This document shows, piece by piece, positions 40,401 to 59,743 of a DNA stretch of 64,000 nucleotides. Below the pieces are notes generated by a model. That model was given only the letters and a program-made list of their open reading frames with translations, was not told where the DNA came from and made no database searches. The DNA is from Amoebophrya sp. A120 (taxonomy: Eukaryota > Protista > Dinoflagellata): contig CAJINV010000001.1 in the NCBI GenBank assembly GCA_905178155.1, forward strand, positions 357,643-421,642, in the 5' to 3' direction. Position 1 is the first letter of the stretch. The number at the start of each line of letters is the position of its first letter. The position numbers were made by a program, and so were the translations under genes.

Positions 40401-40756
40401 CCGATAAGCGAGCGCAGCCAGTCCATGGCGCCACCCGGACACGGCTCGTCTCGGCTGTTCTCTCTATTGTCCGCTTGCGATTGCGAATGATCATCTGCAT
40501 GTTGATCGGATGGTGCTGTAGTTCCGGTGCAATCATAAACATTTGGATTTGTTCCATCACCTCTGTAGTAGAGTTGGTCATATGTCGTTCCCGCGGTATT
40601 CAATTCCTCGAATTGGTTAGTAGAATAGGGACCACTTTCTGGATATGGGCGCTCCCACTGCCAATGAGTCTCGCAAACTTCCTTGTCTTGTTCCGAATCC
40701 TCTTCATATCCGGGCCCGGGGGGGTCATTCGAGAATAAACCGTTCCAGAGCTTCAT
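28427..40756 (-). CDS. Giant (4109 aa) S/T/P/R-rich intrinsically disordered protein, uninterrupted ORF
   Basis: 12.3-kb stop-free ORF from ATG 40756. Low complexity with coiled-coil and acidic patches. Confidence 0.85.
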   Translation of the reverse strand: MKLWNGLFSNDPPGPGYEEDSEQDKEVCETHWQWERPYPESGPYSTNQFEELNTAGTTYDQLYYRGDGTNPNVYDCTGTTAPSDQHADDHSQSQADNRENSRDEPCPGGAMDWLRSLIGLGMTSNAANDAAAAAAASSSEESVKNNPEQFWKAQRKKHPEWEATARLVKNYGLQFPPAEVDEAHKLQRLQFQLQSPSPRERFLAQTESWQRTSSTEFFPGGPTGARNVSMPGMFRSKHSYRDAIIPFDDKEQQQKDTSAGVESETLTSKSKSLSPPRYNYYSWKKVGGESLHLKPTVRDVATSHICTSRTRVEKPTNSRSELRPIDAIEAPLMLSQDLDLQRVSVRPAHPPSFFGDVLLNSAPADERNSNDHLSDSESRARSKGLTPPWIRAPAVSPPRLSTKDLQAEAYGRMSSKANTVTLIPNNYSANTEDEDLSYRSVLHPGYAMSRQLPTARCYTTRTSRSPAPRPTRLPPTNVVGEAVPVGVLPFSSDVAGKIKPDLGDQQEGSVEQHQTANIAAAAFIPKGGKTEDLQQEALVQRPVEEVVDEKRQEDETRQDETVATSDQPSAVLASAPGAQLIPAGPEHQPLSASFLFSASPIGTPRQVVLDHGFAAPQLLVGELQAGTISSPEDCSTSSPNTSKPTPAASTFAPYTPSARPVGFLPGAVLRHAETDDARFEVRKLSPPMQTRGTALVQPGEKTKSALAVTKKRIEAAAEEEPSRFRLSITHTQVPNLDDIRAAVSKEATLETLTKKLAEAAVRDSAAEKSLRGLGSSSTRMMRVSGVEDHASSADSRNNFAVAAHIAVQTDISIAPGGQRMDRKTLDGRSTWLQQLAKGGNKDGISGTHETIIMDYEEERVPVYGEKPNRLKSTSSAAALPARASRTSGMNTDLSSSFAAAAEVEDQRAAFGAARETSAGINLEYKVPSMFTPSPTLAQERQSFVRAQAGAQEPVEKVASDSTLTKQMKVVPLSPPQQPTKAASVLAASASRKQASEQDMITGSLALGASSPRVLRSTDGRLTDSQPSTALPKGVSSEDAFFGAQRRDPTRVLAASATSTAGSALGEMQMRKEPITKVLSSSSPPAAGRQEYVDAPVGALSALSNKPEKKYSRAQEFLRDLRGPGATIEDTDTSAAEDEVVKPETKKSSGAALFPSTSLPVQQPASSGRPTPSASVSRQTSAVAKQDPMSPALVVVTSVTEEDRFTSSHRLQSTSQFKDRGTSPPPPTGVVTDTGKKQSGVRDFFTASAPPSPPDMRRPGTTVGNGNKDQQKAPALDSAKTTSPQIEQTVYQERGAAASLRVPKLRSGSSQERDTTAPAPIENNNVTTPRRLQTTARYSLRGDATASLDVAGASIGQESLKSSRGSDVPKSEVANKPIEKKPTIMPASDSDFPRAKQFLQQVRPGARAIDESESSSSTSEDAHGLRAPSLQVQSIDYARAQRDAEKERAQIYRSGFVPTATKPKGSTATEDTTSNRKQAEERIPFVTPIEKDHEVSSSSSDNMVAEVLAKMNLPASRFASPASLIQQPRRTSKKDDRSTLLLEDSVERKAEKPKQKPARQAPSTDSSSEEVVVAGTRPASSSARSSPSRATKPVAATSTAQKFLKNKSQVVGSDSSSDMEPVEQVVARQENRSTKSKSQPPPKKSFAASQFVFKKPQSSTSGNSSAEERPASEKQQRDSSVRKRSSPEQRPSEKKPFVPAQLFKKSLVVTDSSSSEERPGVNDAVPDSRFRSQTMPPKKPLVSPQLLKIAPDFERKLQQPATMGRLLSTRASRVATGTKVSERTNMSSASKNSATFSVSGASTQLDPPPREEFLRAAQKKSGNKFSQRKQEIISIIEEHKSKARINLGLATPPRAITPSRDTTLRATEVWSPRITLSLPGVNINDTRNSGRALSLQPPVVASLTTTSAMARTSNMSSAAVEKPSYAFPGLTTPSVLKVTRDHQSGRGETTLRRAGVLDTARITGVVGVESSLAEQEKVDLKVLSPQAHMMRQFLSTPRAPSPAPVNTRNEENKRSSSKQERSSFSINVEPQSAAAAAAPTSSLTTLESGFEEPVATASLIASEVGDEEQEPRAKASSSQPKKQTSQPPVVVERLDTKVMPTNKQMTPPQLTAPVVQPVQLPSSRDKNVGGGTSSDDVASASGSSDTSRFEMETKIGETTANKQARAEAGKDKRSGVSTQQQPSTLSYHKWVQQQGIKPLSTNLLQMGTATPISTRTVSTPRSTNVDVAASRRVASLDPVDPIGELPREHTTMVKDVATDLQERKKKSTTSTPDREQDSYSKSTPQRVLAPPSVRTTSAKGGMRTASRSVTPPAVVTTPPGSVTPLKSTPRKASKKRAALSDVLQQVDAQLREDEQKEKRSGSWKRTLRGKSSSSSVVKSSPSPRRATGESHENKVSTAVFPRKKKKSFRPSSKKKTIRGKGRAGASRGDTSTRPLATSRSPSVRVSSPETRNKDHIRSELRELSAQERLLTHTASSRKRDRSAHSENSEVSMVSGIRLPSSPDRSRSATPRGRRGVTSRSLTPATSKRASLSPVVRVRSRGAANEEEDLTADLRLVRPPGAPGGAAAMIPPSRQIFSSARTTSRQTAAPRTATSTTRGRSRRTPAVVDFRVEEVEAAAAGGEQRPSLKRKSKLRAASRSPARSLPIQSPVDLGTERYPLRQLLGTTQASTGKMNLEDVDFDTTSIEVDSSIQQEPPSVTTPQLSPRLMELSMPKQVAGAGATKSPLSSPGRSPKIKPAFGSNKPTSAQTRQQKASKYYARVARTPEAVKNHKERNTEFNAEDDSGLYSKPSVKVVRNLSAPPLRAASSSQRMGHQSEQPLYPVSVRSRDDAASGSVTTSPGGSVTASQSRRPASAQARSRGGEEQQRVVIQPMDVVPDHVVVKQRTMTDTMYRETAPAGPISILRRKTSRGSSEETTDRTKRSNTTTRGGTSQADVERSRPSRSSYEDLRDSKDTTSSSEIDLRRPPSKKTSSSKTSRGGTASIERTVRIGGSEEQILTPRGSSLTRPGRSSSPGNKRRGEEQTAVGRVARSSTPRGRSTAAPSQTLQGDVYVDTSSKASRNVSRFPAPVEERMDITSASRGSGSSEKRGTGADLEGRPGTTTTPQTSKKSTTTLLDEPADTTTRMNAATTDVVERQAPVSGTRRSSSKSKDSIGASQDSAPPVDDKGQQPPKKSSSSKKASMSTSTTEALVLDPAEEATLTIPQKVERLKSLAEERARRKTLEEEQRRQSQEKQELAAALKGSAESRVGDAEKLARVSDKMVGAGNQNIFADINDRLSAASTSGSSGSTTPTSAQQPASSEPSPPPFSEVVRKSRQAAAAAHSQKPNRPPGLQQVVEKPAPTKTPARPSNVSASSNTPARRPLTKDEMYEQLMRKWQSQRTNKTVAVVDTGNLDDVAREDQDEQRPEELQLGIFDDPQNTDFDLVFSTQTRQTQSSEERKTAISTKTLEQPSPDKNSYDVVTNGEDFLQQLPAEEQPAEQQYTPSVAAPEAATSTSALQRVLQDPAMRRFSQLMQAIEEAEESGNLADAEALLPLLEEAQNQIAQKILDSDDIVEENRESVKQAVRSSAVELNQLLFDAQSLEENLRKFNSTTLEVEPFRGSLDDLGARAALLQDEVEGLAQRVDGGGRRSGLVEEELLLPSSSSTTRSSAAMATPINQVEEKPAAKPKAKVMFQSAGKITSRGSIFKRTATQKRMQLIGDRTGTLADGLQEALKRRTTRVGKSEFRMTERGEKVMEEGEVVPTRSYAAGMSGASSASSGGAEQTSTTSPSFLYYNSTTSESSSSDDEDYYPSTFDDEEEQDGYNSVFTCRSSRQGSGYCTALEVEDEERNDVAEPVSLSSDIGAAHSSHSKYRYTLNILCENEHQQGVSSELASSSSSASSSFDDELGSLVPQFGVFSMDTSVDDEDERGSTGTVEQEALNHLEDSLVFSFSPMEDADCGAACSVLQQRQEVEEGDTATARDEEQEAQLVQQKKQPFLFSETSATEILTNIPGGGGRRSPPTSIATTEPVPVPRGGPLPAREPETRTPSTQHTNLPPDSAQQPRKSLGEMLTEVNGLHAFYELPQSQRWSMVQAHLQTTPKAASLVTLLHKKDIAAGRGNKRMSTLSL

Positions 40757-41967
40757 CTTCCGCTGCTAGTGAGTTGTTGTTGGGATTCTGATGGAATATA
40801 GCGCTGGCTTAGGTCAACAAGCAAAATGGGGGACAATTACGCTTAGGTTACTTACTTGCTTAGGCAGGATATTACAATTACATTCAATCAGAGACAGAGT
40901 GTCAGAAGATCAAGATTTTGATTTAGATTTACAAATACTTCGGGTTCGTAAAATACAATTCAGCACAAGCTTCTTCGGTTCGTAAAATACAAATTTAGCA
41001 CTCAATTCGACCACAGATTCGATCTGCCGCACCAGGAAGGCGGCTCCTTTCGGAGTAAAATGACCATTCGCGGATATTTTTATGGGGGGGAACCAAAAGG
41101 GAAACGACGCACTGGGTCGAAGCAATACGATGCGGATGCCATCTGATAGATACTATCACGAGGAGCGCCAAAAGAGCGTAGAACTTCTACGTCTGCACAT
41201 TTAAAGCCATGAAGAAACGACGAGGCTTTGCACGATCACGAGAGGACGAAGTGAGAGAACAAAATGACACGGTGACTTTTCAAATTATGGAACGAAACCG
41301 ATTCCGAACGCAAAAAGCGATTGGTGCACTCACCTTGCTGACTTTATCTTGAAGAAGATGTAGATAGGAAGACGACGGACGAAATAAGCTGACGAGATGG
41401 CAGAGGACTTTATTGCTTCGCTGTCGTGACCAAGTACGATGTACATGAACGACGATCGCATACTAGAGAATTCTGCAATGGGACGGGTCAACCGAGAGCG
41501 AACAAAACAAGAACGGCGACTAGCACAAGTTGTGTTCACTGCACGAGGACACCTGCAGCTTGGCTTTCATGATTCTTGGCGAAACCGGGAGGAAAGAATG
41601 AGAACTATCTGAGAACGCCAGAACATCGGGATCGAGCTACACAAGTACAACTATTGGGTGCAGCATCAAATTAACATTAAGTCAATTCCTTTACAATTAC
41701 AAATCTGAAAGAATAGGATGTTACGTCAACGTCGCGTTGAAGATTTTGGTATGGCGATTGGATAATCCCTGTCGTTGGGTGCGAACTCTAAGTGGTCGGT
41801 GGAATGGGTATTAAACTAAGTATAACTCCTATTGCTGAGCAGGGGCAGTTAAAATTTTGCAACAGGGAGGAAAATCGTCCACGCCGAATATTTTTTTGAC
41901 AACTTTCATACTTTCCAAAGCTGTCGCGATTTGGGAAGTCGCCCAACGCCCAACGGCCAACGGCCAA

Positions 41968-42972
41968 AAATATTTTGCGGCTCGAAATAGAAATACTTTG
42001 CAGCTCGAAATATTTTCCAGCTCGCAAGATTTTCCAGCTCGAATATTTTCCAGCTCGGAATATTTCCCAGCTCGGAATATTTCCCAGCTCGAAATATTTC
42101 CCAGCTCGAAATGTTTGACAGCTCGAAATATTTCCCAGCTCGAAACATTTTCCAGCTCGAACTATTTTCCCGCTCGAACTATTTTCCAGCTCGAAAAATT
42201 TTCCAGCTCGAAAAATTTTCCAGCTCGAAATATTTCCCAGCTCGCAATATTTTCCCGCTCGAAATATTTTCCAGCTCGGAATATTTTCCAGCTCGAAATA
42301 TTTTCCGGCTCGAAATATTTGCCGGCTCGAAATATTTTCCAGCTCGAAATATTTGCCGGCTCGAAATATTTCCCAGCTCGAAATATTTCCCAGCTCGAAA
42401 TATTTTACAGCTCGAAATATTTCCCAGCTCGAAATATTTCCCAGCTCGAAATATTTTCAAGCTCGCAACATTTCCAGCTCGGAATATTTTCCGGCTCGCA
42501 ATATTTTCCAGCTCGCAATATTTTCCAGCTCGAAATATTTTCCGGCTCGAAATATTTTCCGGCTCGAAATATTTCTCAGCTCGAAACGTTTTCCAGCTCG
42601 AAATATTTTCCAGCTCGAAATATTTTCCAGCTCGAAATATTTTCCAGCTCGAAATATTTCCCAGCTCGAAATATTTTCCAGCTCGAAATATTTTCCAGCT
42701 CGAAATATTTCCCAGCTCGAAATATTTCCCAGCGCGAAATATTAATTTCCCAGCTCACAACATTTTACAGCTCGAAATATTTCCCGGCTCGAAACATTTC
42801 CCAGCTCGAAACATTTACCGGCTCGAACTATTTTCCAGCTCGAAATATTTCCCAGCGCGAAACATTTTCCGGCTCGAACTATTTCCCAGCTCGAAATATT
42901 TTCCAGCTCGAAAACTTTTTCAGCTCGAAAAATTTTCCAGCTCGAAATATTTCCCGGCTCGAAATATTTTTC
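41968..42972. repeat. 17-bp minisatellite (CAGCTCGAAATATTTTC), roughly 55-60 copies
   Basis: Direct reading. The 17-aa periodicity in all three plus-strand frames reflects the 17-bp unit. Confidence 0.97.
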
Positions 42973-43144: not shown

Positions 43145-43640
43145 CTATCCTACTGGGAAATCTTTCCCCTGGGTAGCCAGAATTGCTGTGCTAAGCACAG
43201 CAATTCGGGGAATTTTTCCTCCCCGAGCCAGTACCTTCCCGCTATCCCAATACCCCCTCACTATCCTGATACCCTCCCAGTACCCTACTGGGACATCTTT
43301 CCCCTGGGTAGCCAGAATTGCTGCGCTAAACACTGCAACTCGGGGAAAACAAACAGAACTCTCCCACCCCGAACCCGTACGCTCCCACTATCCCAATATC
43401 CCCCCACTATCCTGATACCCTCCCAATACCCTACCGGGAAATCTTCCCCCTGGGTAGCCAGAATTGCTGTGCTAAACACAGCAACTCGGGGAAAACAAAC
43501 AAAATCCTTCCTCCCCGAAGCCGTGCTCTCCCATTATCCTGATGCCCCCTCATTATCCTGATACCCTTCCAGTCCCCTTATGGGAAATCTTTCCTCTGGG
43601 TAGCCAGCATTGCTGTGCTAAACACAGCAACTCGGGCAAA
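43145..43640. repeat. ~135-147-bp tandem repeat, ~3.5 copies, each with a TTGCTGTG..CACAGCAA-type hairpin
   Basis: GGGAAATCTTTCCCCTGGGTAGCCAGAATTGCTGTGCTAA recurs at ~43151, 43286, 43432 and 43579. Confidence 0.92.
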
Positions 43641-44924
43641 AAAGCAAACTTTTCCCAGCCTCTTCAGCTGGAAATCCAGCTGATTTCCAGATTGATAGAA
43701 ATGGAACAGGCCTCTTCAGCTGGAAATCCAGCTGGAAACACTTTGAACAGGCCAGGTGGGAAATGCATTGAAAAGGCGTCTGCAGCTGCGTTTCCAGGTG
43801 GAAATGCGCTGCGACAGATGCCTATTCCAAATTTTTCCAGCTGGATTTCCAGCAGAGAATGCATTGCAAACGTCTGCTGCCGTCTGGGGAACGCCGCCGG
43901 CGGCCAAGCACCAGGCGAGCAGCTGCCCACCACCCTCCCCCGGCGCCCTCCCTCTGTTCGCGAAGGGAAAATCGCGCCCCAGCGCCAGGGTTGCACGCGA
44001 GCAGCTGCCCACCACCCTGCCCCGGCGCCCTCCCACCCTCTGTTCACGAAAAGGCCGGTAGAGGGCGCCACCGTCCGCCGTCTCTGTCTTGGAGGGTGCG
44101 CGCGAGGGAAACAGGCGGGGGCGAAACAGACTGCATGCGGGCTAACACGGGGGGCGCCGATGTTGTCCGGGGGTGCTAGGGGAGGGTGGTGGGACCCTGC
44201 GCCTGGGGGGCAATGAATGCCCCGCCCCGGCGCCCGTCTTCCATCGATCCACGCGCGCGGCAGGGGCCCCAACGCGCCCCCGTTCTGCAAAGCTGCGCGC
44301 GGGAGAAGGGCGAGGGGGCACCAAGGCGCACAGGGGCGGGGAACACAGGCAGGCGGCACGAACGGGCCACACCACAAACATGCGGGCGGGGCGTCACGCG
44401 AAAGCGCCTCGAATGGCGCCGACTGTTCCCCTGCTTCCTTCCCCCGCCGACTGGCGGCCGCCCTTTGCCGCGCTTTGCGTTGTTGCTTGGGCCTAAGGCT
44501 TGCCGCCACGCAAACGCGCGCCCAGTGCGGACGGGGTCCTCGCGCTCGCACAACGACGGGAACCACGGGCGCCATGGCGCTCCGCCTTCGTTCTTTCAGC
44601 AAGAAGCGGCGCAGATGCCTGGCCCCGCCCTGCTTCAAAAATTTTTTCCCTTGCCCCTCTGGCGTTTTTCTTTCCCCCCCGTCCACTCGTTCGCCCTCCC
44701 ACTGCGCGACATAAGTTGCGGCCTTGTAGGTGCTCGATTCATCAGCTTCAGCTGTCAAATCTGCAACGAAAATCCATTTGCAAATGAAATGCTTTCGCGT
44801 ATCGACCGCACCTGGTAGAGGGGAGCAACTATGTGATGTGTAGGAATATTTCGCTTGAGCTTGAGTTTCAAAGCTAAGGCTACAAGCGTACGCCAACAAA
44901 CGCGTTTTTTTTATTGCTTCAGGT

Positions 44925-47900
44925 TCACCCGCCCGCACGCGTGATTGCAATGACCCTTTCCACCGTCTTTCCGAACTGTTTCCCGGAAAGCCCCGTGCTG
45001 CCCTTGTGGTCTCTCACAATTGTTGCAGTTCCTCCCGGTCCGTGCAAAACGTGGTGGGAGCCACGAACATTCAACTTCAACTGCGTTTTGGCTGCCATGC
45101 CTGATTCACTTTCTACATTCTCCACCGTAAGAAGGCCACTTTTACTAAGCAGATGGAGTCCGCGCTTCGTCTGACGGGTCGTCACGCGCTTCTGCGCGAC
45201 TATGTCCCACACAGCCTTCCCTTTGCGCGGCAAGCATTCATCTCTAATGCTGGCGGAACCACCACTTTTCTTTCCGCGCCTCTTCGCATTCGCAGCGGGC
45301 ATGCTGCGCGTCGACGAAACTGAACTCTTCGGGGGCTCGTCCAGGTCGTCAATATCAAGCCCTGCGCCGCGGCAAGACCGCCGGAACGCTTCATCGGCGG
45401 ACAGTTCATGCTCTGCTTCCCACGTTTTGCGAAAGTGTTCTGCCCGTTCCCGAGCAGAGTTCACTTTGAACGCGCCGGCTCGACCTCGGGTCTTCACTTT
45501 TTCCTTGCGTGCTTGCGGCTGCTCTTGGCCGTAGTCAAGATCGAGCTCCAGGTTTTCATCATCAACTCGAAGTGAGGCGGGCTCCCCTTCTCGGAGCAGT
45601 GCCGCCACGTCTGCCTGGAGCTTTTCCGAGTCCGGCCCGAGGAGACAACCACTTTTGTCATTCTCCAACACCGCGAGAAGGGCTTTCGGGTCGTCCAGTC
45701 CTATCAACGCCGCTTGTGCTATCTGCTCGGCTGACAAGTCACTACAATTTGTCCCATCCTGCGTGTCGGACCAAAATTCCTCTACCAAATATCGGTCAAT
45801 TGCATCCTCAGGCGCCGCTGGAGCAAAGGGCACGCGTCCAGTTATGCACCTGCGACCCTTTTCTGAGACACCAAGGAGGTCGTTCTCGGACAGGTACGAG
45901 TCGATGGCATCGATGATTTGCTGATCGTGCGGCGTGAAGTCGCCCAAGGCCATCCAAGTATCCGGCGCAGCGGCATGCGCAGCTGTATTTTCATCATAAG
46001 ACGATGAATCGGAGCCCGAAAAAACAGCGCCAAAGAGTGCGCGCTTCTTCCGCCGCCCAAGTTGCTCTAACCAGTGCATGCGTCGCAAGTTCCACCTTCG
46101 GTGGATATCGCTTGGAAACGTGCTTGGAGGCTTTCCCACCAGCAATCCCGTGGTATGGCGCATGCCGAAAAACTCGATCTCCGCCGCGGAGTTGGGTCGA
46201 TCCAAAAAATGTCCGCGCAACCCGTCACCCCGCAGGTTTCCGACGAGGGCAATCCCGACTTCCCTCGCGGCATCCTCATAGCTCATTTGAGGCAAATTCT
46301 CCGCGGCACGATATGTGTTCCATTCCTCCATACTACGTGATCGCTCCACGTGAACTCGGCCTTCATCCACGTATTTTGCGAAGTCGACAATCTCGAGGGC
46401 AATAAAGGGACGCGTGTCGATCTGCGCGAGAGATGGAGTGTGCAGTTTCTGACTCACCCAAAATCCCCGCACGACTTTTGTGGCATCATCATCCGTGGCT
46501 GGCGCAGCTGTGTAGCGAGGCTGAAAACAACTTCCATCAGGATTCGTTATTGCCATTTCCATCTTCTTTCCTGGCCACGTAAGAGCGCTCGAGTTCATTC
46601 CTTCTGCTGGGTTGAGTACGTTCAGACGTGGCACAGCGGCGTCGGTGAACAAAAAGCTATTGCAGTGACTCGAACCTCCAGCACAAGAAAATGCGGGGTA
46701 CAGCAATATGGTGACGACAGGCAAGCCGTCGTCCCAAAATAGGTACAACCAGCTGTCCAGCTCGTAGGTGTTGGAGCCGCGAGTGGGACTCAAATACGGC
46801 CGAAGCGACGAACAGCGCCACGGGAGACACAGTGTCTCCTGTCTGCACATGATAGCTGGCGCTGCCTGCGCAAAGAAGGACACCGCGAGGGATTGCAGGG
46901 CAGCCCAATTCCAATCATCAACAACGTTGAAGATCCATCCTACGTGAAACAGTTGACGGCGGGTTTCTTCGGACTCCCGTAGCCAATCCTCACACTTTGC
47001 GCCCGCAAGATGCACACGTTGAAACGGAACAACGCGACGCTCGAAAATCGCCTGCAGGGAAGTGTCGATACTGGGCCGCCTGGTTAGCTCCCCGAACTGG
47101 CTGTGGACCAGTGGGTTCGCCGGGTCTTGATCGCCGGAATTCACCTTGAAAAACTTGTCCTTGTCTAGAAAATTGGCGAGCTCAGCATTTCTGTCCTGGG
47201 TGTAGCATGCCACACACGCTTGACCATCTTGCTTGAATGGGATTCCCGGAATTGCACCCGAGCCTTCTTTTGCCACCGGCGCGAGTGCAACGCGTGAATC
47301 CGACGCGGTCAGCGGCCTGTGAAACGGCCCAGGCTTCGTCATGACGCTCGACTGCGCGCTGTTTGCCGATTGCTTTTCTCCCCCTTGGAGCTGCGTCAGC
47401 TTTTCACAGCCTGCAGAAGTATGAATCCGAATCGTAGTTAGAAACAAGTTCCGTCCGTCTCTCTGTTTCTCATCTATTTTCATCAGTATCTATTTGAACG
47501 AGTCATTGAATAAACACCCAACAGTCAAGAAGAATTATACTCATCGGGTCAGAAGTGCGAGCCACATCCTCAAACGCAGGCACAGCCGCAATGAGCTCCA
47601 TGCGCCCCCGCTCCGGCTGGGGGTGGGGCTCGCCTCTCTGCTCCACAGTAGGATCGACTTGAGCAGTCCCGCTCTTCAGAACGTCACCAAGTTGTAAGCA
47701 GAGCAGTCTTAGGTTTTTCGGCAAGATGCCCACCCGCTTGTCGTTCAACTGGGGAATGCGAATGGTTACCTTCTCTGCATTGTCTGGAAATGTCAGAGCG
47801 TCGACAAATGCTCCGCGTCCATTCAACTCTTCTGCCTTTCCAAGCGAGTGAATTTCGACAAAATCATTTTTGTGAAGTCGTTCCTCCTTGCCATTTGCGG

Positions 47901-48890
47901 CAAGCGAGGACTTAACCAAAACTTCCGGCATGGGCTCGTCAGACGACCTTGCAGCCACGACTTCTTCGAACACATCGTTTTTCCTCTCCGCACGCGGGAA
48001 GGCCTGGCCTTCGCCCAGAAGTGGGATGTGAAGCATCTCAAGGGAACCTAAAATTTTTAAGGGTAGGGTAAGGCTTGATGAAGCTGCAAACCCAAACCGA
48101 CCCCAATGAAAAGATTTCATGGGCATGCACCGTCCAACAACATATGGATGATTTCACACCAATGTCACATTGTGCATGTACTTACACAGGAAAAGTTATA
48201 TCCAACTCGGGAGACGGGAGTATGTCGTTTCAAAAAGTTCATACTGTTGCCGAGCAGCCTGATATCCCTGACCAGCATATGCTTGGTTCGACAAAATCCC
48301 AGCTCTGCGAATGTGACAGTGTCATCTTGGCTCTCGACGGTTATACGCGGACGTGGCGAAACGGGTGCGTCGAGATTCGGAAACGTTTCCAAATACGGCT
48401 CGTTGATATTCACAATCTCGAACACCACAACAACCCGCGGCTCGACAAAATTCGACATCTTTGTTTTTTCGATGTTGATTATTCCATCCATCATCCCGTT
48501 TCTTCTGAACCAGGAATCAAGCTTTTTCGCCGTGAGCGATTTCAGATCATCCGGAACGCCGGCCAGTGGAGCTTTGTGGTCTGCGAGACGGCGAGCAGTG
48601 CGACCTGTAGCAACTAGACACCGCATGTGACCATCATAGATTATCATCGATTCCTCACTTGCCGTGCTCTTCAGCAGGGAGGCGCGCTTTGCCGGATCTG
48701 ACAGCTCGTCGCTGAGCCACAAATGCCGGATCAGGCACTTGTCATTGAAAGCCAACAATTTTTTCCCGTCGTCGTCGTCCTTCACCGTTTCTCTAAACTC
48801 AGCGGCGTACTTTTTCTTCAATGCGGCCTTAACCCGTTCGGGACTAGCCAGGTAGTCCTTCCATCTGCGCTCGATCGAAAGCACTACCAT
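44925..48890 (-). CDS. HicA-like-domain family paralog 1 (probably 3 exons)
   Basis: The 264-, 207- and 852-aa ORFs are collinear with the N-terminal, SH3-like and C-terminal parts of paralogs 2 and 3. Phase-compatible GT-AG introns at 48048-48244 and 47411-47540. C-terminus LNVRGSHHVLHGPGGTATIVRDH. Confidence 0.72.
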
Positions 48891-49632
48891 TTTGGTCTTC
48901 TTAATGGCTTCACTTTCAGTATTGATGTGCATGTATGAAAATGAAGCAAATGCAATCACTTTACTACAGTGTACCGCGTGCCCGCATTCAACATCAATTT
49001 TAGGGAAAAAAATTTCGATTGTAAGTGGATAAGGAAAAAAACTGTGTGCATTTCAGTCACCGATTTTGCTTATGTGTGCAGACCTGAAAACGTCAGAAGC
49101 GGTTCTGCGCTACTTCAGAACGAGGACTGTCCTTGCAAGAAAATTCTACCGTTGTCAAAAACGCTGAAGAGGAAAAGTTAAAACTTGAAGCAAAGAGCAC
49201 TCACGTGCTTTGGAGAAAATACTCTAGCCAACAACTTCCACGTGCTAGAGTGCGAAGACCATTCAAGATACGACCTGAAAGTCACAGCATCATGATAGTC
49301 CGGTAATAGGCGACTTGCTTGCAGAAATGATCTCCCAGATTACCGGCATAGACATAGAAAGTTGTTTTCTAATCTCTTCATCCGGTGGAAAAGATCTATC
49401 CAAAAATGTCAAAAGAGACAACACAGTAAGAACCGTGAGGTTGGAACATTCATAGATACATTATGCGCACCGGCTTGCCGTCATTAGAACCAACATGATG
49501 CTGATGGTTGGCTCTTCAGTTCTACATTTGTAAATACTCTCCTGACGGGGCGGTGGTTTTGTAGTTGGCAGGGCAAAAAAGTCTATTGACCTTTGACTTC
49601 GTTTGTGCACAACTACAAGGCACGTCTCGCCT

Positions 49633-52600
49633 TCAGAGGGAAGCCGTACCCCGAGTTCTCTCGCTGACTTCCACCACTCTCTCCATCGTCTGCACAAACT
49701 GCTTCCCCGTCAGCGGTGCCGTCCCCCGGTGGTCGCGCACCATGGTCGCGGATCCCCCCGGCCCGTGCAAAACCTGGTGCGATCCCCGCGTGTTCAGGCG
49801 CAGCTTTTTCACCCCGGTTTCCGGATCCGCGTCAATCCCAACAAGACCCGCCTTGCACAACAGGTTCAGTCCGCGCTTCGTCTGCCGCCACCGCATCCGC
49901 TTCTGCGCCAGTACGCCGACGACCGCACGAGCACGCTGCAGGCGGTGTTCGGTCATGGCAGTAAAGGAACTCCTATCAATGTCATCTACGTCATCATCGT
50001 CCAGACAGCTCGCGGTTGTCTCTTTACTGGCAACCGATTTCGTCTCCTCCAACCGGAAGCCGCCCTTCCGGGCGGACCGCTCGATCGCCTCGTCCGCCGT
50101 CGTTTCGTTCTCGGCTTCCCACGCTTCGCGGAACTGCCGGGCCCGGTCACGCGCGGACTGCAGATTGAATTTCCCGGCTTCTCCGCGAGTCTTCTCCTTC
50201 TTCTTCGGCATTAACCAGGAGGTCAAACCGGAGTACGAAGCGGCCGCTTCTTGACTTTCTGCTGGTGTCGTTGCTCCTTGTTGGTGCAGAAGAGTTGCAA
50301 CTTCGGCTTGTGCCGCTTCCATGCCCGGACCGAAAGCGCACCCCTGCGTCTTGTCCGCGAAAACCTCCTGGAGCGCCTCGGGGTCATCGCATCCAACCAG
50401 AGCGGCCTCGAGCAGCTCCTCCGCGGTCAGATCGTCGCCCGACGTCGGAGTCGGGCTGGTGGGGGCTCCGTCGCTGTCATCTCGATGTTCCTGCCAGAAT
50501 TTGTCCTCCAGGTACTTGTCCATAGCGTCCTCTGGTTGGGGCAGAGCAAACGGAATCTGTCCCGCGATGCAGCGCCGGTTTTTTGCACACACTCCGACGA
50601 GGCCATTCTCAAAGAGATACGCTTCAATAGCGTCGATCACCTGTTGGTCGTAGGGAGAAGAATCGCCCCGCGTAATCCAGTGTGACCCGGAGGACGCGTG
50701 TGCCGGCCCACGGAAAACGGCATTGGCGGCTGCGCCGTGAAACACGGCGCCAAAACACGCGCGCTTTTTTTGCTCGCCCAGACGTGTCAGCCAGTGCATG
50801 CGCTTCAGGTTCCAGCAGTTCTTCTTGTCATCAGCAACGAGGTCGCCTTTCTTATCGCGCGCGCCGTAGAGTTCTCGCTCTTCCGCTGTGTCCGGGCGGT
50901 CCAAAAACTGCTTTCGCAGTCCCGTCCGCAGCTGCTGCCCCCCAAAAAGCGATTGCGCAATTGACCTTTCTGCGCCGTCCTCTCCAAAGCACGCTGCCAT
51001 GGGGCCCAGCTGCTCTGCCATCTGTTGAACTTTCTCGGCTCCGTCCGCAAGGTAGTGCTGGAAGTCAATGATTTCGACAGCAAGGAACGAAGTGGTTTCG
51101 ACTTGGACCAGATTCGGCGCGCAATGCTGCCGGGAAATCCAGAAGCCGCGCGGAATGGTGGCTCTAGGATCGTCTTGTGCAGCCGACGTGCTAGGTTGAT
51201 TCTTATTTGCCGGTTTGCTTTTATTTCCCTTCTTGTTTCTCGTTGCCGGCGAAACCGGGTGCGGCTGTGCTTTCGGCAAGGCCTGGTCTCGCACGTCATA
51301 ACTGGGCACCACTGTGGAATGCAACCAATTTGATGCTAGGTTGCGACAGTCGATAAGATTGGGTCTAATGAACGGTATCACAACAGGGCGGCCGTCGTCC
51401 CAGAAAAAGTACAACCACTCGTCGTGGATTGTGCTCCGATTCGCATGAATGGCCCACGGCAAGCACAGGGCCTCGCGGGCGGCGACCACTTCCGGGGCAG
51501 CCTGCGCGAAGAATGACACAGCGAGTTTCTGCAGGAGCGGCTCCACGCATTGTTCAGCCGCAGAGGTGTCGCCGCGGAGATGTTGCATCAGATATCCCAC
51601 GTGAAATAGGGCGCGCCGGGTGCTCTCTCGTTCTATCAGCCAGTGGTCGCAGTTGACGCCCGGGCGGTGGACATGCAGAAACGGCTTGATCCTGCGGTTC
51701 ACGATTGAGACAAGCGTTGCGTTTACACTAGTTCGCCTTGTCAAAGAACCGACGTGCTGTGTGTACAAACTATCATTCGGGTCGGCGCCAAAACTCGCAT
51801 TGTAATGCTTTGCGCGCTTCTTTGTCTTCGTGTGAAGAACATCCATCAGTTTGGCATGGTGTTTTGCATCAAAACATTCCATGAATTCCACTACCAAATT
51901 GCGGTCGTACGAACTCGAGTCCTTGCCCTCGAAACCGGTCGGCTGCTTTTCGTCCACCGCTTCGGCCTCTGCTGCGATGCCGCTTTTCTTCAACTCGTCA
52001 AGCGTCTGCTTTGCTTGTTTGAGAACGTTTGTGAGCTGCTTCCTGGCTTTGCCTTGCACAGCGTTGTCGGAAGAGGTGGAAACTCCTTCAGCGGATTGCG
52101 CGACCTGACTCGGCGGAGCAAAAATGATCTTCTTCTCGAGCAGCGCTTCCGCAACAGCGATTTCCTTTCCGAGCGATTTTGCGTCGCCGGATTCACGACC
52201 GGCCCGCAGCGCGATCACCAGTTCCCCTGCTAATTCTGCATAATCCGTATCGTCAACAACATGATCGTTTTGTGCGCCAGATGCAGCTGAAGCGGTCGCT
52301 CCACTCCCAGCACCACTGTTGGGAGAAAATTCATCCATGATGATCTCTTCCCGTACTAGCTTGAGGTTTTCAGGCAAAATGCCCAATTTTGCATTTCGCA
52401 GTGTCGGCACCCGAATCGTGAGCTTCCCAGGCTGTTCCGGATGTTTCACACTCTCGACAAAAGCTAGCTTCCCGTTGAACTTCGCCATGTGCTTGTTGGT
52501 TTCCGCGCAGAACGAGTGAATCTCCACGAGGTCGCCTTTGCCCAGCGGTCCGAAGTCGCGGCAGGCTTCGATCTCTTCAGTACGTTCGAAATCTGGCAAG

Positions 52601-53373
52601 GCAAGTTGCGCAAGCGACGGCGTCAGCGCAACTAATCTGTTCCGTTCCTCTTCCTCGTCGGAACTGTCTGGCTCCATCCGGACGTTTTCGGTTTGTTTGA
52701 CGACAATCATGTGCTTCGTACGACAGAACCCCAGCGAAGCGAACGTAGTTGTCGCGTCTTTTCTTTCCAGGGTGATGCGTGGTCGTGGCGCGGTGGGCGC
52801 GTCGTGGGTTGGCAATATGTCCACGTACGGCTCATCCAGGCTGGCGATCTCGTAGGCTACCGGTTTCAAATCTACGTGGCGTGTGGCCTCAAATCCGCGC
52901 GCCATGGAAAACGGGTCTCCAAAACGCATGAACCTCATCGAGTGCCGGTACCAGCGGTCCAACTGTTTCGCGGTCAGCACTTCCAAGTCGAACTTGCCGC
53001 TTATTGTATCAAGAGCAAGTTCTCGGGCGCCGGGCAGAAAAATATTGATGCTGAAGTAGCACCCTGTTTCGAGCAGGAAGCGCTGGTTATCGGCAAAGAG
53101 AATAATGGTGTTTTTCGCTGCAGTTTTCTTCAACAACGGAAGGACATTCGCTGGGTCCTTCAGCTGTTCGCAGCAAGCTTTCACCTCGAACTCCCTCTTC
53201 ATCGCTTTCAGCTCTTCCGGTTCTTCCGGAAGGTTCTCTTCGTCCATGCTGGTATCCTGCAGCATCGTCATATCGTCCAGCTTTCCCATGACCAAGCGCG
53301 GAGGGCCGTCCGGGAACCTGAGCCCCTGCTTTTTCAAGAACGCGGTCATCTCCTTCTGCCTGCTTGAAGCCAT
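49633..53373 (-). CDS. HicA-like-domain family paralog 2, intronless, 1246 aa
   Basis: Long ATG-initiated ORF sharing blocks with paralogs 1 and 3 (EPYVD...PRPR.TL...TF.SLGFCRT.HM, FFAQA.P, WNLKRMHWL, RGSH.VLHGPGG). Confidence 0.88.
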   Translation of the reverse strand: MASSRQKEMTAFLKKQGLRFPDGPPRLVMGKLDDMTMLQDTSMDEENLPEEPEELKAMKREFEVKACCEQLKDPANVLPLLKKTAAKNTIILFADNQRFLLETGCYFSINIFLPGARELALDTISGKFDLEVLTAKQLDRWYRHSMRFMRFGDPFSMARGFEATRHVDLKPVAYEIASLDEPYVDILPTHDAPTAPRPRITLERKDATTTFASLGFCRTKHMIVVKQTENVRMEPDSSDEEEERNRLVALTPSLAQLALPDFERTEEIEACRDFGPLGKGDLVEIHSFCAETNKHMAKFNGKLAFVESVKHPEQPGKLTIRVPTLRNAKLGILPENLKLVREEIIMDEFSPNSGAGSGATASAASGAQNDHVVDDTDYAELAGELVIALRAGRESGDAKSLGKEIAVAEALLEKKIIFAPPSQVAQSAEGVSTSSDNAVQGKARKQLTNVLKQAKQTLDELKKSGIAAEAEAVDEKQPTGFEGKDSSSYDRNLVVEFMECFDAKHHAKLMDVLHTKTKKRAKHYNASFGADPNDSLYTQHVGSLTRRTSVNATLVSIVNRRIKPFLHVHRPGVNCDHWLIERESTRRALFHVGYLMQHLRGDTSAAEQCVEPLLQKLAVSFFAQAAPEVVAAREALCLPWAIHANRSTIHDEWLYFFWDDGRPVVIPFIRPNLIDCRNLASNWLHSTVVPSYDVRDQALPKAQPHPVSPATRNKKGNKSKPANKNQPSTSAAQDDPRATIPRGFWISRQHCAPNLVQVETTSFLAVEIIDFQHYLADGAEKVQQMAEQLGPMAACFGEDGAERSIAQSLFGGQQLRTGLRKQFLDRPDTAEERELYGARDKKGDLVADDKKNCWNLKRMHWLTRLGEQKKRACFGAVFHGAAANAVFRGPAHASSGSHWITRGDSSPYDQQVIDAIEAYLFENGLVGVCAKNRRCIAGQIPFALPQPEDAMDKYLEDKFWQEHRDDSDGAPTSPTPTSGDDLTAEELLEAALVGCDDPEALQEVFADKTQGCAFGPGMEAAQAEVATLLHQQGATTPAESQEAAASYSGLTSWLMPKKKEKTRGEAGKFNLQSARDRARQFREAWEAENETTADEAIERSARKGGFRLEETKSVASKETTASCLDDDDVDDIDRSSFTAMTEHRLQRARAVVGVLAQKRMRWRQTKRGLNLLCKAGLVGIDADPETGVKKLRLNTRGSHQVLHGPGGSATMVRDHRGTAPLTGKQFVQTMERVVEVSERTRGTASL

Positions 53374-53692
53374 CTTCGTGTCCGGCGGTGTGTATTGTGT
53401 GCAAGGACAACGGGCGCTGAAAATTCTGTAAGAAAAAAAAAAAGTAAGAGGACTACGTAAAAAAAAACTTCTCGTAAAAACGCCTTATTTGAACTTGGAA
53501 TAGGATAAATGCAACAATTTTCTCTCAACGAGATAAGCCACTTTGGGTTAGAAATGTAGGCCATCGACGGGAGTCCGCCCGTGAACAAGAAGAGAAAAGT
53601 CGGTTTCCGGGCCTGCAGGAGACAGATAGAAAATGTGATAGGGGGCACATTTTTGCACTAGCATGATGGATACACTACAAAACCAAATGACA

Positions 53693-55321
53693 TATAGAGA
53701 CGAAAAAGGTGATCTTCAGCAGTGTTCTTATCCCTAAAGGAATTCGCAGCATACCGTCGGGATTTGCCCTGTTTTTTGCGCCAACGCAGGCGCTGCAGCT
53801 TTTATGGTCGCGCCTGCGTAGGAGTGCTGTTGCCTTCCCTGGTGGGTTTTTTCACGCGGCCCAGGCGTCTTTCTAGAGGAACCAACAGGCACGCTAGCAC
53901 CCCGGCGAGCCTAGACATAGACTAAAGAGGCCCCCCCACTGCGCAGATCGACGCGCCCCGCGGGCACTAGCAACACACCCACCCGGCGCAGGCGGGCATC
54001 TTTTCCGCGGCCCCGAGCCCGACGTACTCGCGACCCAAAAAAGGCCGCAAGCCGGCTCGTGCAGACTTGGCGCGCAGGCCCCTCGAGACCTCTTGGAACT
54101 CTTCAAGCGCGCCCCCATCTCTCACCCGCCGCCCCAATCACTCACCGTTGGCACCGGACCGCTTTCGCGGCCGTGGTGGACGCACTTGCAGAAGACCCGA
54201 AAAGCTTCCCGCCTGGTGTTCGTTTAAACGCTCAAAAAAGATAGATAAGAACGCCTACTGCAACGACCTGTGATTGATGTTTTGGCACGAAACAGAGTTG
54301 GAGCTTCTGCGCCGAATGTTCCCGCTCTCGAAGACTGCTGCTCTTATCCTCCACGCCATGCATAGATAAGAACACGTTTGTAACGACCAGAAATTGGTGG
54401 CTGGCACGAAGCAGAATGACATCTTCTGCGCCAGATGTTCCCGTTCTCGCAAAAGTGCTGTTCTTATCCTCCAAATGGTGCATAGATAAGAACACGTTTG
54501 TAACGACCTAAAAGTGGTGTTCTTATCTATGCACGAACAGGAGGGATAAGAACAGCACTTTTGAGAGAACGGGAACATCTGGAGGAGCAGCTTCAATTCT
54601 GATCCAATTACCCTACTGCAGGTTGGAAGCTGGAGAGCGACATTCCGACACTGCTGCCCAGTCGTGGTGGTCCTCGCGGGGAGGGGAAGCATTACGCGAA
54701 GTTGACGGCTATCCGAAGGCAGCTGGCTTTTTCGAAGTTGGTGAGGGGGGGCCTGCCGTTGCCAGCATTTTACGACGTTCGCCCCCACTGGTCTGCGCGG
54801 CTGGCTTATCCGGGTGTTCTCTTCCGCGATAAGCCAGCGCCCCATCGGTCCTAATTTAGGACCGATGGCACGGCGCAGGCAACAAAGACAACACCGCAGG
54901 GGCTAGCATCTGCTATCTGACACAAAGAGAGACGAATGGGCCCGCACACTGCCGCGGCCCGGTGCGACCGCCGGCGTAGCCCCGGCTTGGGGGGGATCTT
55001 TGGGGAAAAAAAGAGCCCCTCCAAGCTGGGGCATCAGCTCGCGCCCAGGCGCGCGAACTTGGACGCAGTGGCTGGCGGTTATTCTGTCAGCGCGCAGCGC
55101 GTTCCCTGGCGCATGCGCTGGGGCTGCGCTAAGCACGAAAGCGCGACCCTCTGGAGGATGCGCGGCGAAGGCTTTGGATAGCCCTGGGCGGTCTCGCTTT
55201 TGTTGGCCTCAGACACGCCAGGCCTCGCCTAGAATGAAAAAAACTCACGAATCGCGACGGTATGGCGCGATTTCTCTTAGGGATAAGAACACGCGGGAAG
55301 ATCACCTTTTTCATCTCTATA
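53693..55321. mobile_element. 1629-bp non-autonomous TIR (foldback-like) DNA element with TAT...ATA ends
   Basis: ~85-bp imperfect TIR TATAGAGAYGAAAAAGGTGATCTTC...GTGTTCTTATCCCTAA. Perfect TSD TGACA at 53688-53692 and 55322-55326. Internal ~120-bp repeats and a central palindrome. No transposase ORF. Confidence 0.9.
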
Positions 55322-55921
55322 TGACAACCCTAAAAGTTTCAATACATGCTGTCAGACAGACTTACAACACGAATAAAGTCAGTGTATGTGCATGTACAAA
55401 TACAATTGCAATCACAAAATTGTAGATCTTCACCTTGAAGATGACCTTTTTCAATCTTTTCCCTCTACGAGGAGCTACCAAAGATAGGATTAGAAACTCC
55501 ACCTCGCTGCTTTCAATTTCATCTGAACGAAGAAGCAAACAAATCGAAATCATGCGATGGATTGTGCTCATACTTGAAAGCCCTTCTACAAATCAGCGTT
55601 GTTTTTGTCGCTCAACATACCCTTCTGACGAAGTCAATGACTACATAGCTCCGCCCAATCGAATCCGAGCATCACGACTGCTACACTGATCTTGACGAGA
55701 CGATTGTGATTGTGCCGGACCTTGTTACGCAGACGTAACGAGAGCCATCGCAAGAATGCGCAGTCCAGTACCAATCATTTTTCGTGGCCTTGCGTCACGG
55801 ACCACAACATCTTTCGCCACTGCTCGAACAGATGAATTATGCTATTGCGAGTGGAGGTGTTGGTTCAATTTCAAGAATGGGGGCACACAGCAAACAAATC
55901 GATTCATTAGTTGTAGGTTCT

Positions 55922-58900
55922 TCAACTACCGCCGATTTTTGACTGATCTGAATCTACACCAATTTCAGCGACTTTTTTCATACTCTCCACGAACTGTCTC
56001 CCCGTAAGCGGTGCGCTTCCTTTGTGATCCCTCACCAAAGTTGCGGCGCCTCCAGGTCCATGGAGAATCTGATGCGACCCGCGGGTGTTCAGACGCAACT
56101 GCTTGACACCGGACTCGGGATCGGTATCAATCCCAATCACTCCCACCCTTCGCAAAAGATGCAGCCCACGCTTCGTCTGCCGCCACTTCATTCGCTTCTG
56201 CGCAAGCACGTTGAGTACCGCCCGAACGCGTTCCAGGCGATCATCTTCAATGTAGTTACTGCTGCCAGCCCCATCCGCGGAGCCAAGACCACTCGGAGCC
56301 GTGTCTACAACTTTACTCGCTCCTGCAGATGAATTCGCATCCACCCAACGCAGACCGCATTTGCGCACAGACCGCCCCGTTGCTTCATCAGCGTCTTCTC
56401 CGTTATTCTCTTCCCAGGCTTCCCGAAATTTCCGTGCGCGATCGCGAGCGGTGTGAAGGTTGAATTTTCCGGCTTCACCACGAGTTTTAATCTTTGCTTT
56501 TGGCACCAAATGCTCCGCCGCCTGCACGTGAAGGTCCCGCAGCTTGTCATCGAGCCCTTGCTTGATCAGTGCAGCCGCCTCGGTCTGCAAACAGTCCAGC
56601 TCCGGGCCGAAGAGGCTCTGACTGCAGTCACCTAGCACTTGTTCCAGGGCCTCCGGATCGTCCCAGCCTATCAGGGCGGCCTGCACGAGCTCGGCGGCAT
56701 TCAGATCCTCTGCGCCGACCGTCCTTGATGCGGGTGCGCCATCGTCATCGATGTCGCTCCAAAAAAGGTTCTCCAAGTATTTGTCCATCGGGTCTTCTGG
56801 GACTGGCAGGGCAAACGGAATGTGGCCAGTGATGCAGCGTCGATTTTGGTCCACGAAACCGAGAAGAGAATTCTGAACCAGGTACTCCTCGAGCGCCGTA
56901 ATAATTTGTTGGTCCAGCGGTGTGGAGTCCCCGAGCACAATCCATTGCGGTGACGCCGACGCATGGGGATGAAACGCGTGAGAGAAGCCCGGGGCAGAAG
57001 AACAAGGACCGCAACTACCGGCACCGTGGAACAAAGCACCGAAGCACGCGCGCTGCCGACGCTCGCCCATAGCCGTAAGCCAATGCATCCGCTTCAAATT
57101 CCATCCAACATCGTAGTCGGTTTTGTCCAGAAGCGCGCCGTTTTCGTCGCGTTTACCGAAGAAAGCGATCTCCTCTGCCGTGTTAGTGCGGGAAAGGAAT
57201 TGCTTCCGCATGCCGGAGACTTCGTTGCGGTTTCCAAAAAGGATGTGCGCCTGCGCGAAATGGTACTGATGGTTTGATAGGTCGGCAATAATCTCGGCAT
57301 GTAGCTGTTCCTTCTCTGTTTCGGACAGCGGGCCTTCTCTCTCCTCCAGCCGCTTGGCCGCGGTCCCGAGGACAGACAACATTTTACAATTTCTCTTGCC
57401 AGCCGTAATAAACTCCTGAAAGTCCACGACTTCAACGGCTAGAAAGGAACCGGTCTCAATCTCGACAAAACTTTGCTGGAAAGGTTTGATTGACGCCAGG
57501 AATCCACAGAGAACTGTATCATCGCACAGAGGATCATCGTCGTGTTTCTGGTGCTTTTTCTTCTTCTTCTTTCCGACACCCGCATCGACGGTCATGCTCC
57601 TATTTCCAACATCATACAAGGGGACGCGGTCCGTGTGGAGAAACTTGTGCATGTCCTGTCGAGCACTGCTCCAGCATTGCGTATCCTTATCGGAGGACGA
57701 GGGCGTAGGCAATTGCATGAACGTTACAATTGGGCCGGACGACGGATGCCAGAACAGATAAAGCCAGCTTTCATCTGTTCCTTCTCGCGAGGAGTACACT
57801 GAACACGGAACACACCACTGCAGACGGTCCGCGATGACGTCCGGCACCGCTTGAGCGAAAAAAGATACGGCAAGCGCGCGGAGGAGGAACAAACGGCGGC
57901 CCGCTTTGTCGTGTTTCGGTTCTCGCCCCAAAAACTCAAAGAGCCAACCAATCTGAAATAGGATGCGCCTCGTCTCTTCGTTCTCGAGCAGAAAGTCATC
58001 GCAAGTCGACCCAGGAACGTGAATATGCTTGAAACGGCGCACGCATCGCAGCAGCACCGTCGATAACGAGTGCGCAAGACTTTTTTGCGTTGTCATCTTT
58101 CCGAGACTGCCCGGAACCAACGACGATATCCGAGAACTTTTCGTGTCGGGGAGCTTGCACTGTCTTCGGAGTCTGCGACATTCATCCTCATCCTTTTCTC
58201 TTCGATCGCGTACATCCGCGATGAACTGAAGTAACTGGTCATGCCGCTCTTCTGTGTAGCAGTTTTTGTAAGTCGACAGTCGGGCTACTCGACTGTCACG
58301 ACCTGAAACAGCTTCGTCTTGTTTATTTTCGCACTCGCTTGGCTTCTCGGACGCCAAAACAATCCGGTGTTCAGCAAAATGGACTGCCTTCTTTAACTGG
58401 TTCCGCACTTTTCCCCGCAGGAAATAGTTCGTCTCGTTTTCTGTTGTAGAGCTAGCTGCCGTGACCCCCGGATCGCTGGGATCTTTCGCCCCAACGCAAC
58501 GCCGGTTTAGCAGCTCTTTTGCCCGAGTTACTGCGCTTCGCAACTTGTTGCGCGCGTCGGAAGCGGCGGTGCCGTTGTCGTGCGCGGCCCTCAGTTTATC
58601 AAGTAACTCGGAGGCTGCTGCCCGGGCGTCCTCTGCGCCACCGGCGTCGGCGCCGGTCTCTACCGCCAGTGCTGCCAGAAGCTCGTCATCGTGCTCAAAG
58701 AACGGGCAGTCGTCCAGCCGCCGCACGTCATGCACGGAGAATGTCCGCCGAAGGTTGTTGAGTAGCGGAATTTTTACATCAACGAAGGACTCGCCGTCCG
58801 AAGAGATCTGCACATCCTCAACGATGGCACGTTTCCCATTGAACTTGATCGCGTCCTCTTGGTCTGCACCATCGTTGCAAATGCGAATCTCCACGACATC

Positions 58901-59743
58901 AAGCCGCATGATCAATGGCTGGAAATTCGACGCAAGAGAGACAGCTGAACTTCGCGGTGAAGATGCGGGAGTGTCGTGCACCATCAATTTGTCAATTTCC
59001 GCTACACGTGAAGATATGTACTTCTGCTTTTCGTGGCTATGGACCCGTTGGTTGACGATTATCATATGCTGCGTTCGGCAGAAGCCCAAGGACGTGAAAG
59101 TTGATTTCGTATCGCTCGCTAAGAGGGTCCTACGCGGCCGCGGCGGACATGGGGCGTCTCCAAAAGGAAAAATGTCGACATAGGGCTCGTCAAGGTTCGC
59201 TATTTCGTACTCGCCCGTGGACACGAGTTCTTCTTCAGGTCCCTCCACGCCAGCAACCGACCACCCACTGGCCAATTCCTCGAATGTATTTTTCACCCAC
59301 TTGTCCAAAGTGTGAGCAGTTAAACAATGAGCTTCATCCTGCGAAGAAAAAATGTGCCGAGATTCGTGCTCCGGCTGTCCTCCTGCTTCTTCTTCTCGAG
59401 GTGGGTTTCGAGATGGTATGAAGTGCTCACCAGTGGGAATCAGGAAGCGCTGATTGTAAGCGAAAATCACAATTGTGTGCTTCTCCTTTGTCTTTTCCAA
59501 AAGAGAAATCATTTTCCTTTTCGCCGAGACTTTCAACTCTTCACAAAAGCATTGCTTTTCTAGCTCCTTTTGTGCGAGTTTCTTCGCTTGCTTTTCTAGT
59601 TCCTCCTGTGCGAATTTCTCCGCCAATGCCGGCGTGTTGAGCACAATCGTCGCCACTTGTTGGGCTAACAAGTCCTGACTCGGTGTCTGTGATGCCATTC
59701 TGACTGCTGTCAAACCATCTGCTTCATCTTCAATACTAGACAT
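55922..59743 (-). CDS. HicA-like-domain family paralog 3, intronless, 1273 aa
   Basis: Long ATG-initiated ORF with the same block order. C-terminus LRLNTRGSHQILHGPGGAATLVRDH. Confidence 0.88.
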   Translation of the reverse strand: MSSIEDEADGLTAVRMASQTPSQDLLAQQVATIVLNTPALAEKFAQEELEKQAKKLAQKELEKQCFCEELKVSAKRKMISLLEKTKEKHTIVIFAYNQRFLIPTGEHFIPSRNPPREEEAGGQPEHESRHIFSSQDEAHCLTAHTLDKWVKNTFEELASGWSVAGVEGPEEELVSTGEYEIANLDEPYVDIFPFGDAPCPPRPRRTLLASDTKSTFTSLGFCRTQHMIIVNQRVHSHEKQKYISSRVAEIDKLMVHDTPASSPRSSAVSLASNFQPLIMRLDVVEIRICNDGADQEDAIKFNGKRAIVEDVQISSDGESFVDVKIPLLNNLRRTFSVHDVRRLDDCPFFEHDDELLAALAVETGADAGGAEDARAAASELLDKLRAAHDNGTAASDARNKLRSAVTRAKELLNRRCVGAKDPSDPGVTAASSTTENETNYFLRGKVRNQLKKAVHFAEHRIVLASEKPSECENKQDEAVSGRDSRVARLSTYKNCYTEERHDQLLQFIADVRDRREKDEDECRRLRRQCKLPDTKSSRISSLVPGSLGKMTTQKSLAHSLSTVLLRCVRRFKHIHVPGSTCDDFLLENEETRRILFQIGWLFEFLGREPKHDKAGRRLFLLRALAVSFFAQAVPDVIADRLQWCVPCSVYSSREGTDESWLYLFWHPSSGPIVTFMQLPTPSSSDKDTQCWSSARQDMHKFLHTDRVPLYDVGNRSMTVDAGVGKKKKKKHQKHDDDPLCDDTVLCGFLASIKPFQQSFVEIETGSFLAVEVVDFQEFITAGKRNCKMLSVLGTAAKRLEEREGPLSETEKEQLHAEIIADLSNHQYHFAQAHILFGNRNEVSGMRKQFLSRTNTAEEIAFFGKRDENGALLDKTDYDVGWNLKRMHWLTAMGERRQRACFGALFHGAGSCGPCSSAPGFSHAFHPHASASPQWIVLGDSTPLDQQIITALEEYLVQNSLLGFVDQNRRCITGHIPFALPVPEDPMDKYLENLFWSDIDDDGAPASRTVGAEDLNAAELVQAALIGWDDPEALEQVLGDCSQSLFGPELDCLQTEAAALIKQGLDDKLRDLHVQAAEHLVPKAKIKTRGEAGKFNLHTARDRARKFREAWEENNGEDADEATGRSVRKCGLRWVDANSSAGASKVVDTAPSGLGSADGAGSSNYIEDDRLERVRAVLNVLAQKRMKWRQTKRGLHLLRRVGVIGIDTDPESGVKQLRLNTRGSHQILHGPGGAATLVRDHKGSAPLTGRQFVESMKKVAEIGVDSDQSKIGGS

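Follow-up and report, generated by a model that had tools for sequence, protein, structure and literature searches.

A family of large Amoebophrya proteins, apparently undescribed, with a predicted HicA-like domain at the C terminus

How does a domain of bacterial toxin type come to stand at the end of very large eukaryotic proteins, and what would it do there? HicA is described as a small toxin of bacteria, archaea, and phages. The question is raised by three co-oriented minus-strand genes of Amoebophrya sp. A120, here called A, B, and C, which lie within positions 44925-59743 of the window, that is, the whole stretch of 64,000 nucleotides (nt) analyzed. An earlier note, made from the sequence alone, had read them as three diverged paralogs of ~1200 amino acids (aa) ending in a HicA-like RNase domain. 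The paralogs are real, with 35 to 39% pairwise identity, and C needs two introns spliced. The genes and their C-terminal domains (tails) are as follows.

55922-59743, minus strand: gene A, 1273 aa, single open frame with no intron needed
55958-56197, minus strand: putative HicA-like domain of gene A, Gly-Ser-His (GSH) codons at 56072-56080
49633-53373, minus strand: gene B, 1246 aa, single open reading frame
49663-49902, minus strand: putative HicA-like domain of gene B, residues 1158-1237, predicted alpha-beta-beta-beta-alpha
44925-48932, minus strand: gene C, 1226 aa, three exons (48245-48932, 47541-48047, and 44925-47410)
44940-45197, minus strand: putative HicA-like domain of gene C, GSH codons at 45054-45062, weak match to Pfam HicA_toxin (E 0.1)

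The tail is the best-conserved part of the three proteins, as the earlier note had stated, with 42 of 80 residues identical in A, B, and C, compared to 34 of 80 in the best 80-aa window elsewhere; the tail peptide quoted in that note lies in gene B. GSH and two more histidines are invariant across the three proteins, and the full tail motif occurs exactly three times in a six-frame translation of the window. In the wider family, R1163, G1197-S1198-H1199, H1203, T1210, V1212, and H1215 (gene B numbering) are invariant in all 18 aligned members, GSH is present in 30 of 31 tails, and the near-invariant cluster of R, GSH, H, T, and H is restricted to the basic tail. The invariance of GSH and a downstream histidine, asserted earlier, holds for A, B, and C, but the second histidine lies at +4 from the GSH histidine, a spacing seen in none of 56 HicA sequences (60 minus four wrongly oriented rows), 30 of which have the histidine of their "HP" motif at +5, so that the two histidines are not positionally equal. 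Gene conversion was considered as a cause of tail conservation: silent identity is 39% against 32% expected in the tail and 27% against 27% elsewhere. A small excess may exist, but it cannot explain conservation across the whole family.

Several moderate lines of evidence, none decisive alone, support the HicA-like fold with a kept catalytic-type histidine that had been proposed for the tail. The model predicted from 16 sequences (predicted local distance difference test [pLDDT], 87) has a helix at 27-39, strands at 56-61, 64-69, and 72-77, and a helix at 88-102, which is the order of HicA toxins, similar to that of double-stranded RNA-binding domains (dsRBD), and the one the earlier note had named as its check. 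HHalign places the tail GSH on the HicA GSH, i.e., at the strand 1-2 turn position of the catalytic histidine. Superposition of the model on solved HicA structures gives low Z scores (3.3 to 4.3) and a root mean square deviation (rmsd) of ~3 Å. The Pfam HicA_toxin model matches gene C at 13.1 bits and the best relative at 19.2 bits, with a gathering score of 27 bits, and matches neither A nor B; scans of the full proteins with Pfam, PHROGs, and NCBIfam yielded no usable match, and sequence searches of the PDB with four alignments yielded none. No reciprocal match to bacterial HicA was obtained, blanks in the word-index searches being weak; these searches overlooked most known family members. 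A HicA/dsRBD-like fold is predicted and very probable, and the domain probably descends, with much divergence, from a bacterial HicA toxin. That it acts as a histidine-dependent RNase is somewhat favored.

The gene models agree with evidence from sequencing runs, whose status as RNA-like or DNA-like is the tool's guess. Gene B is spanned by a single contig of 4031 nt (49575-53605) from the RNA-like run X5 with zero differences, transcripts of B and C occur in all four RNA-like runs, and gene A is covered by short RNA-like pieces only, mostly toward the 3' end. Unspliced, gene C falls into three frames; spliced, it encodes 1226 aa, or 1212 if translation starts at the next ATG, and contains no internal stop codon. 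Its two introns are as follows.

48048-48244, minus strand: intron 1, 197 nt, GT..AG, joint found in X3 and X4 and absent from X1
47411-47540, minus strand: intron 2, 130 nt, GT..AG, joint found in X3 and absent from X1

These joints, seen in X3 and X4 and not in the DNA-like X1, argue for the RNA nature of the former two runs. In X1, one contig crosses 44702-53722 without differences; its depth is flat at 42 to 43 over the genes and the contigs are unbroken, indicating that the gene copies are not an assembly artifact.

How far does the likeness to known systems go? With the HicA mRNA interferases (type II HicAB; PF07927, COG1724; PDB 6G26, 6HPB, and 5YRZ), the tail shares its predicted topology and basic surface, GSH at the first hairpin, and a late histidine after strand 3; the Gly and His of this motif are needed for HicA toxicity, as described for Gly22 and His24 of the Burkholderia protein (PMC11594946). 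HicA, however, is a single domain of 50 to 100 residues, whereas the tail is fused to a body of 700 to 1100 residues (1226 to 1273 aa in all for A, B, and C), and HicAB has an adjacent or fused HicB antitoxin that this family lacks. The family also differs in an additional helix preceding the domain, an insertion following helix 1, the extra invariant +4 histidine, Arg or Lys in place of Pro, scores below the Pfam cutoff, and its eukaryotic nuclear genes, one of them with spliceosomal introns. By prediction the tail works in a HicA-like way, yet the family is not a member of HicAB in size, antitoxin, or Pfam score.

Crinkler/CR-type conflict proteins combine a header domain, possibly ubiquitin-like, with a C-terminal toxin-type domain, are expanded in particular lineages, and do not need a classical signal peptide. 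The family recalls them in its header, C-terminal toxin-type domain, and lineage expansion, its own header being only putatively ubiquitin-like. Neither an NTPase nor any of the known CR toxin domains was detected in the family, and HicA is not known to be one of the latter. In bacterial polymorphic toxins (the S8-PTS BetaH toxins and an RHS toxin), a HicA-type domain also stands at the extreme C terminus of a large protein; in the account given in PMC9424270 it shows ~50% identity to toxin-antitoxin HicA, is secreted, and has partner immunity genes, whereas the domain here is far diverged, constant across the family, and has no secretion signal by hydropathy and no HicB-like immunity gene nearby.

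The family is apparently undescribed. Some large fungal proteins may likewise carry a HicA-like C terminus, in which case the eukaryotic occurrence is not unique, but this family still looks undescribed. A literature search for HicA or HicA-like domains in eukaryotes, fungi, dinoflagellates, protists, and effectors found no paper on a eukaryotic case, and the 2006 HicAB paper could mention eukaryotic homologs. The main texts of two Amoebophrya studies (PMC7789003 and PMC6176090) do not mention toxins or ribonucleases by the terms searched, and their supplements may hold stage-specific expression of these genes; ~60% of Amoebophrya proteins are given as lacking an assigned function (PMC7789003).

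Another question is how old the family is. With the last 707 residues of gene B as the query, a fourth A120 paralog (P0007) was found, and a profile of the four paralogs, run against 1.84 billion proteins, retrieved 34 representatives with E ≤ 0.001; the matches of 31 extend into the tail. Named among the other 30 matches are three further A120 proteins, six AT5.2 records, and one cluster of Durusdinium trenchii (6 members); A120 has at least 7 copies, including the three of the window, and a full-length member is found in the coral photosymbiont Durusdinium. An alignment of 18 rows shows motifs common along the entire length at 20 to 40% identity. In a tree of 24 rows, A, B, C, the fourth paralog, and one AT5.2 protein form one clade (100/100), and three A120/AT5.2 sister pairs have starred support, while deep branches are not resolved. 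This clade and these pairs indicate that the family is older than the split of the strains and that the cluster is a local expansion. The tandem expansion claimed earlier is confirmed, but the family reaches beyond the cluster in both age and range. One relative (L002) is a single copy amid ordinary co-oriented eukaryotic genes (WD40-like and cyclic-nucleotide-binding-like by eye), and a few short relatives sit on contigs of <1.1 kb and may be fragments. None of the 35 stretches matched by pattern in viral_contigs, or of the 34 in genome_contigs, offered a viral or prokaryotic home for the family, and an Atlas search with the Durusdinium protein gave no usable match. The best phage match by tblastn ran antisense to tail-region genes and was discarded as chance.

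Three proteins of AT5.2 and A120 (P0014, P0025, and P0033), left out of the 18-row alignment by eye, apparently have only their last 170 to 250 residues in common with the family, suggesting a second body type joined to the helical-plus-HicA-like end; most relatives were found via the tail, so bodies with other C-terminal domains could escape detection. Their N-terminal body looks different, and P0025 has weak helix-turn-helix matches (E 0.04 to 0.09). In D. trenchii, near-identical copies (P0016 and P0039-P0043) lie on two scaffolds, and an 823-aa product is also called on unannotated contigs, hinting that the gene has almost no introns although the genome is rich in them. One D. trenchii gene model joins a family member to reverse-transcriptase-like sequence.

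The body in front of the tail is less clear, its full-length model being mixed (pLDDT 64; predicted template modeling score [pTM] 0.44). Its parts in gene B are as follows.

52687-53109, minus strand: N-terminal domain, residues ~89-229, family-wide, predicted beta-beta-alpha-beta-beta-beta
51985-52251, minus strand: predicted three-helix bundle, residues ~375-463, of a widespread kind and without a specific match
50100-51900, minus strand: conserved core of alpha/beta and helical structure, residues ~490-1090, with an invariant "RA..W" helix at its end

The strand and helix order predicted for the N-terminal domain is reminiscent of a ubiquitin-like beta-grasp; no sequence match was found for it in PDB sequences or Pfam. 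A low-confidence beta segment is modeled between this domain and the bundle. Conserved core columns are mostly hydrophobic, Gly, or Pro, suggesting that the body is more scaffold- or sensor-like than enzyme-like. Foldseek with the full-length model gave no match, and a wider fold search yielded only a generic three-helix bundle, which filled the results, so that the core was barely probed and no new fold is claimed; the body may contain one.

What would hold such a tail in check? No HicB-like frame lies nearby, as the earlier note had said: a 72-row HicB profile reached a best E of 0.82 in the six frames of the window, HicB being the sole immunity family searched. An internal HicB-like antitoxin domain was likewise rejected: the family alignment, scanned in 40 windows, gave a best probability of 2.5%. 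Simple hydropathy, with no trained predictor, revealed no signal-peptide-like or membrane-like stretch in A, B, or C and no hydrophobic leader in most full-length relatives. Gene A has a Lys-rich run (six Lys; 57543-57573, minus strand) in a variable loop, and basic patches at the same place in gene B and other paralogs could be nuclear localization signals.

The reading we prefer, though tentatively and at slightly less than even confidence, is that these are large intracellular proteins of the dinoflagellate lineage with a HicA-derived RNase tail and a body that serves as an antitoxin-like switch. The tail would cut RNA via the GSH histidine: H1199, the putative equivalent of His24 of Burkholderia HicA, would be catalytic and lie side by side with H1215 at the sheet edge, forming the active site. 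Free HicA stops growth, and HicB acts by masking the catalytic histidine in the description of PMC11594946. Since free HicA arrests growth and no HicB is found here, restraint in cis is likely, as the simplest use for the body, which would hold the tail in place of an antitoxin until a trigger arrives. Directed against viruses or other invaders, the role would be one of cell-autonomous defense or of arrested growth, and not attack on the host; such a module fits the patchy range, the growth in copies, and the variable body on a fixed catalytic tail. A bolder history is doubtful, namely, that an early ancestor of the dinoflagellate lineage captured a bacterial HicA and turned it into a one-chain sensor-RNase, a new regulatory body of 1000 residues replacing the antitoxin, and that this eukaryotic innate-immunity or suicide nuclease was kept in parasites and coral symbionts and is still expanding. 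With HicA as its conserved working end and no HicB, the family would be a further example of eukaryotic cells taking over an enzyme of toxin-antitoxin origin, and a concrete candidate for RNA-level defense in dinoflagellates; with a tail of 80 residues and a mutant of one residue, tests would be inexpensive.

Alternatively, the tail might bind or trim specific RNA in decay, processing, or translation control, as part of a domesticated protein of RNA metabolism with no role in defense. The three starred sister pairs would then be old, vertically kept paralogs, and the transcripts of B and C in every RNA-like run and the single copy in L002 are consistent with such a role; a range as patchy as 34 representatives in 1.84 billion, with one named core dinoflagellate, and at least 7 A120 copies with local tandem growth and neighbors 35 to 39% identical, make it unlikely. 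The earlier note had offered a parasite effector. On this view the parasite would release the RNase, possibly once cleaved, and destroy the RNA of the host as it digests the host cell and nucleus. Expansion in Amoebophrya (7 copies in A120 and 6 records in AT5.2), digestion of the host nucleus as reported in PMC6176090, and HicA domains as C-terminal warheads of the polymorphic toxins in PMC9424270 point that way, but the lack of a leader in A, B, and C and most full-length relatives and the member in a non-parasitic photosymbiont weaken this idea, the tail does not vary from copy to copy, and we consider the effector improbable. Even less credit goes to convergence of a small fold, with the three invariant histidines forming a metal- or ligand-binding site devoid of nuclease activity. 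The low Z scores, the rmsd of ~3 Å, a histidine at a position unused in the 56 HicA sequences, and the missing reciprocal match would suit it, whereas the sequence profile, the predicted topology, the place of the motif, and features from a language model agree on the HicA family.

Between genes A and B lies a 1.64-kb noncoding element (53688-55326) whose ends form inverted repeats of 90 nt with 80% complementarity and which also contains inner repeats; its X1 depth of 200 to 420, against 42 for unique DNA, suggests a multicopy element resembling a miniature inverted-repeat transposable element (MITE). Downstream of gene C are tandem arrays at 41990-42970 and 43221-43648 (a 17-bp unit repeated 57.6 times and a 146-bp unit repeated 2.9 times), and the flank near 44500-44730 is also high copy. 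At positions 1-13500, a block of two or three genes is repeated almost identically, with a gap of Ns at about 4.5 to 5 kb; within the block, frames of 293 aa and 288 aa recur at about 3.3, 5.8, and 10.2 kb and at 1.4, 8.3, and 12.7 kb. The block is either a recent tandem duplication or an assembly repeat. A frame of 4112 codons (28427-40765, minus strand) encodes a low-complexity protein rich in Ser, Thr, Pro, and Arg, with no Pfam match. Another of 1429 codons (17565-21854, minus strand), split by a very long low-complexity loop, resembles by eye a Na/Ca-K exchanger.
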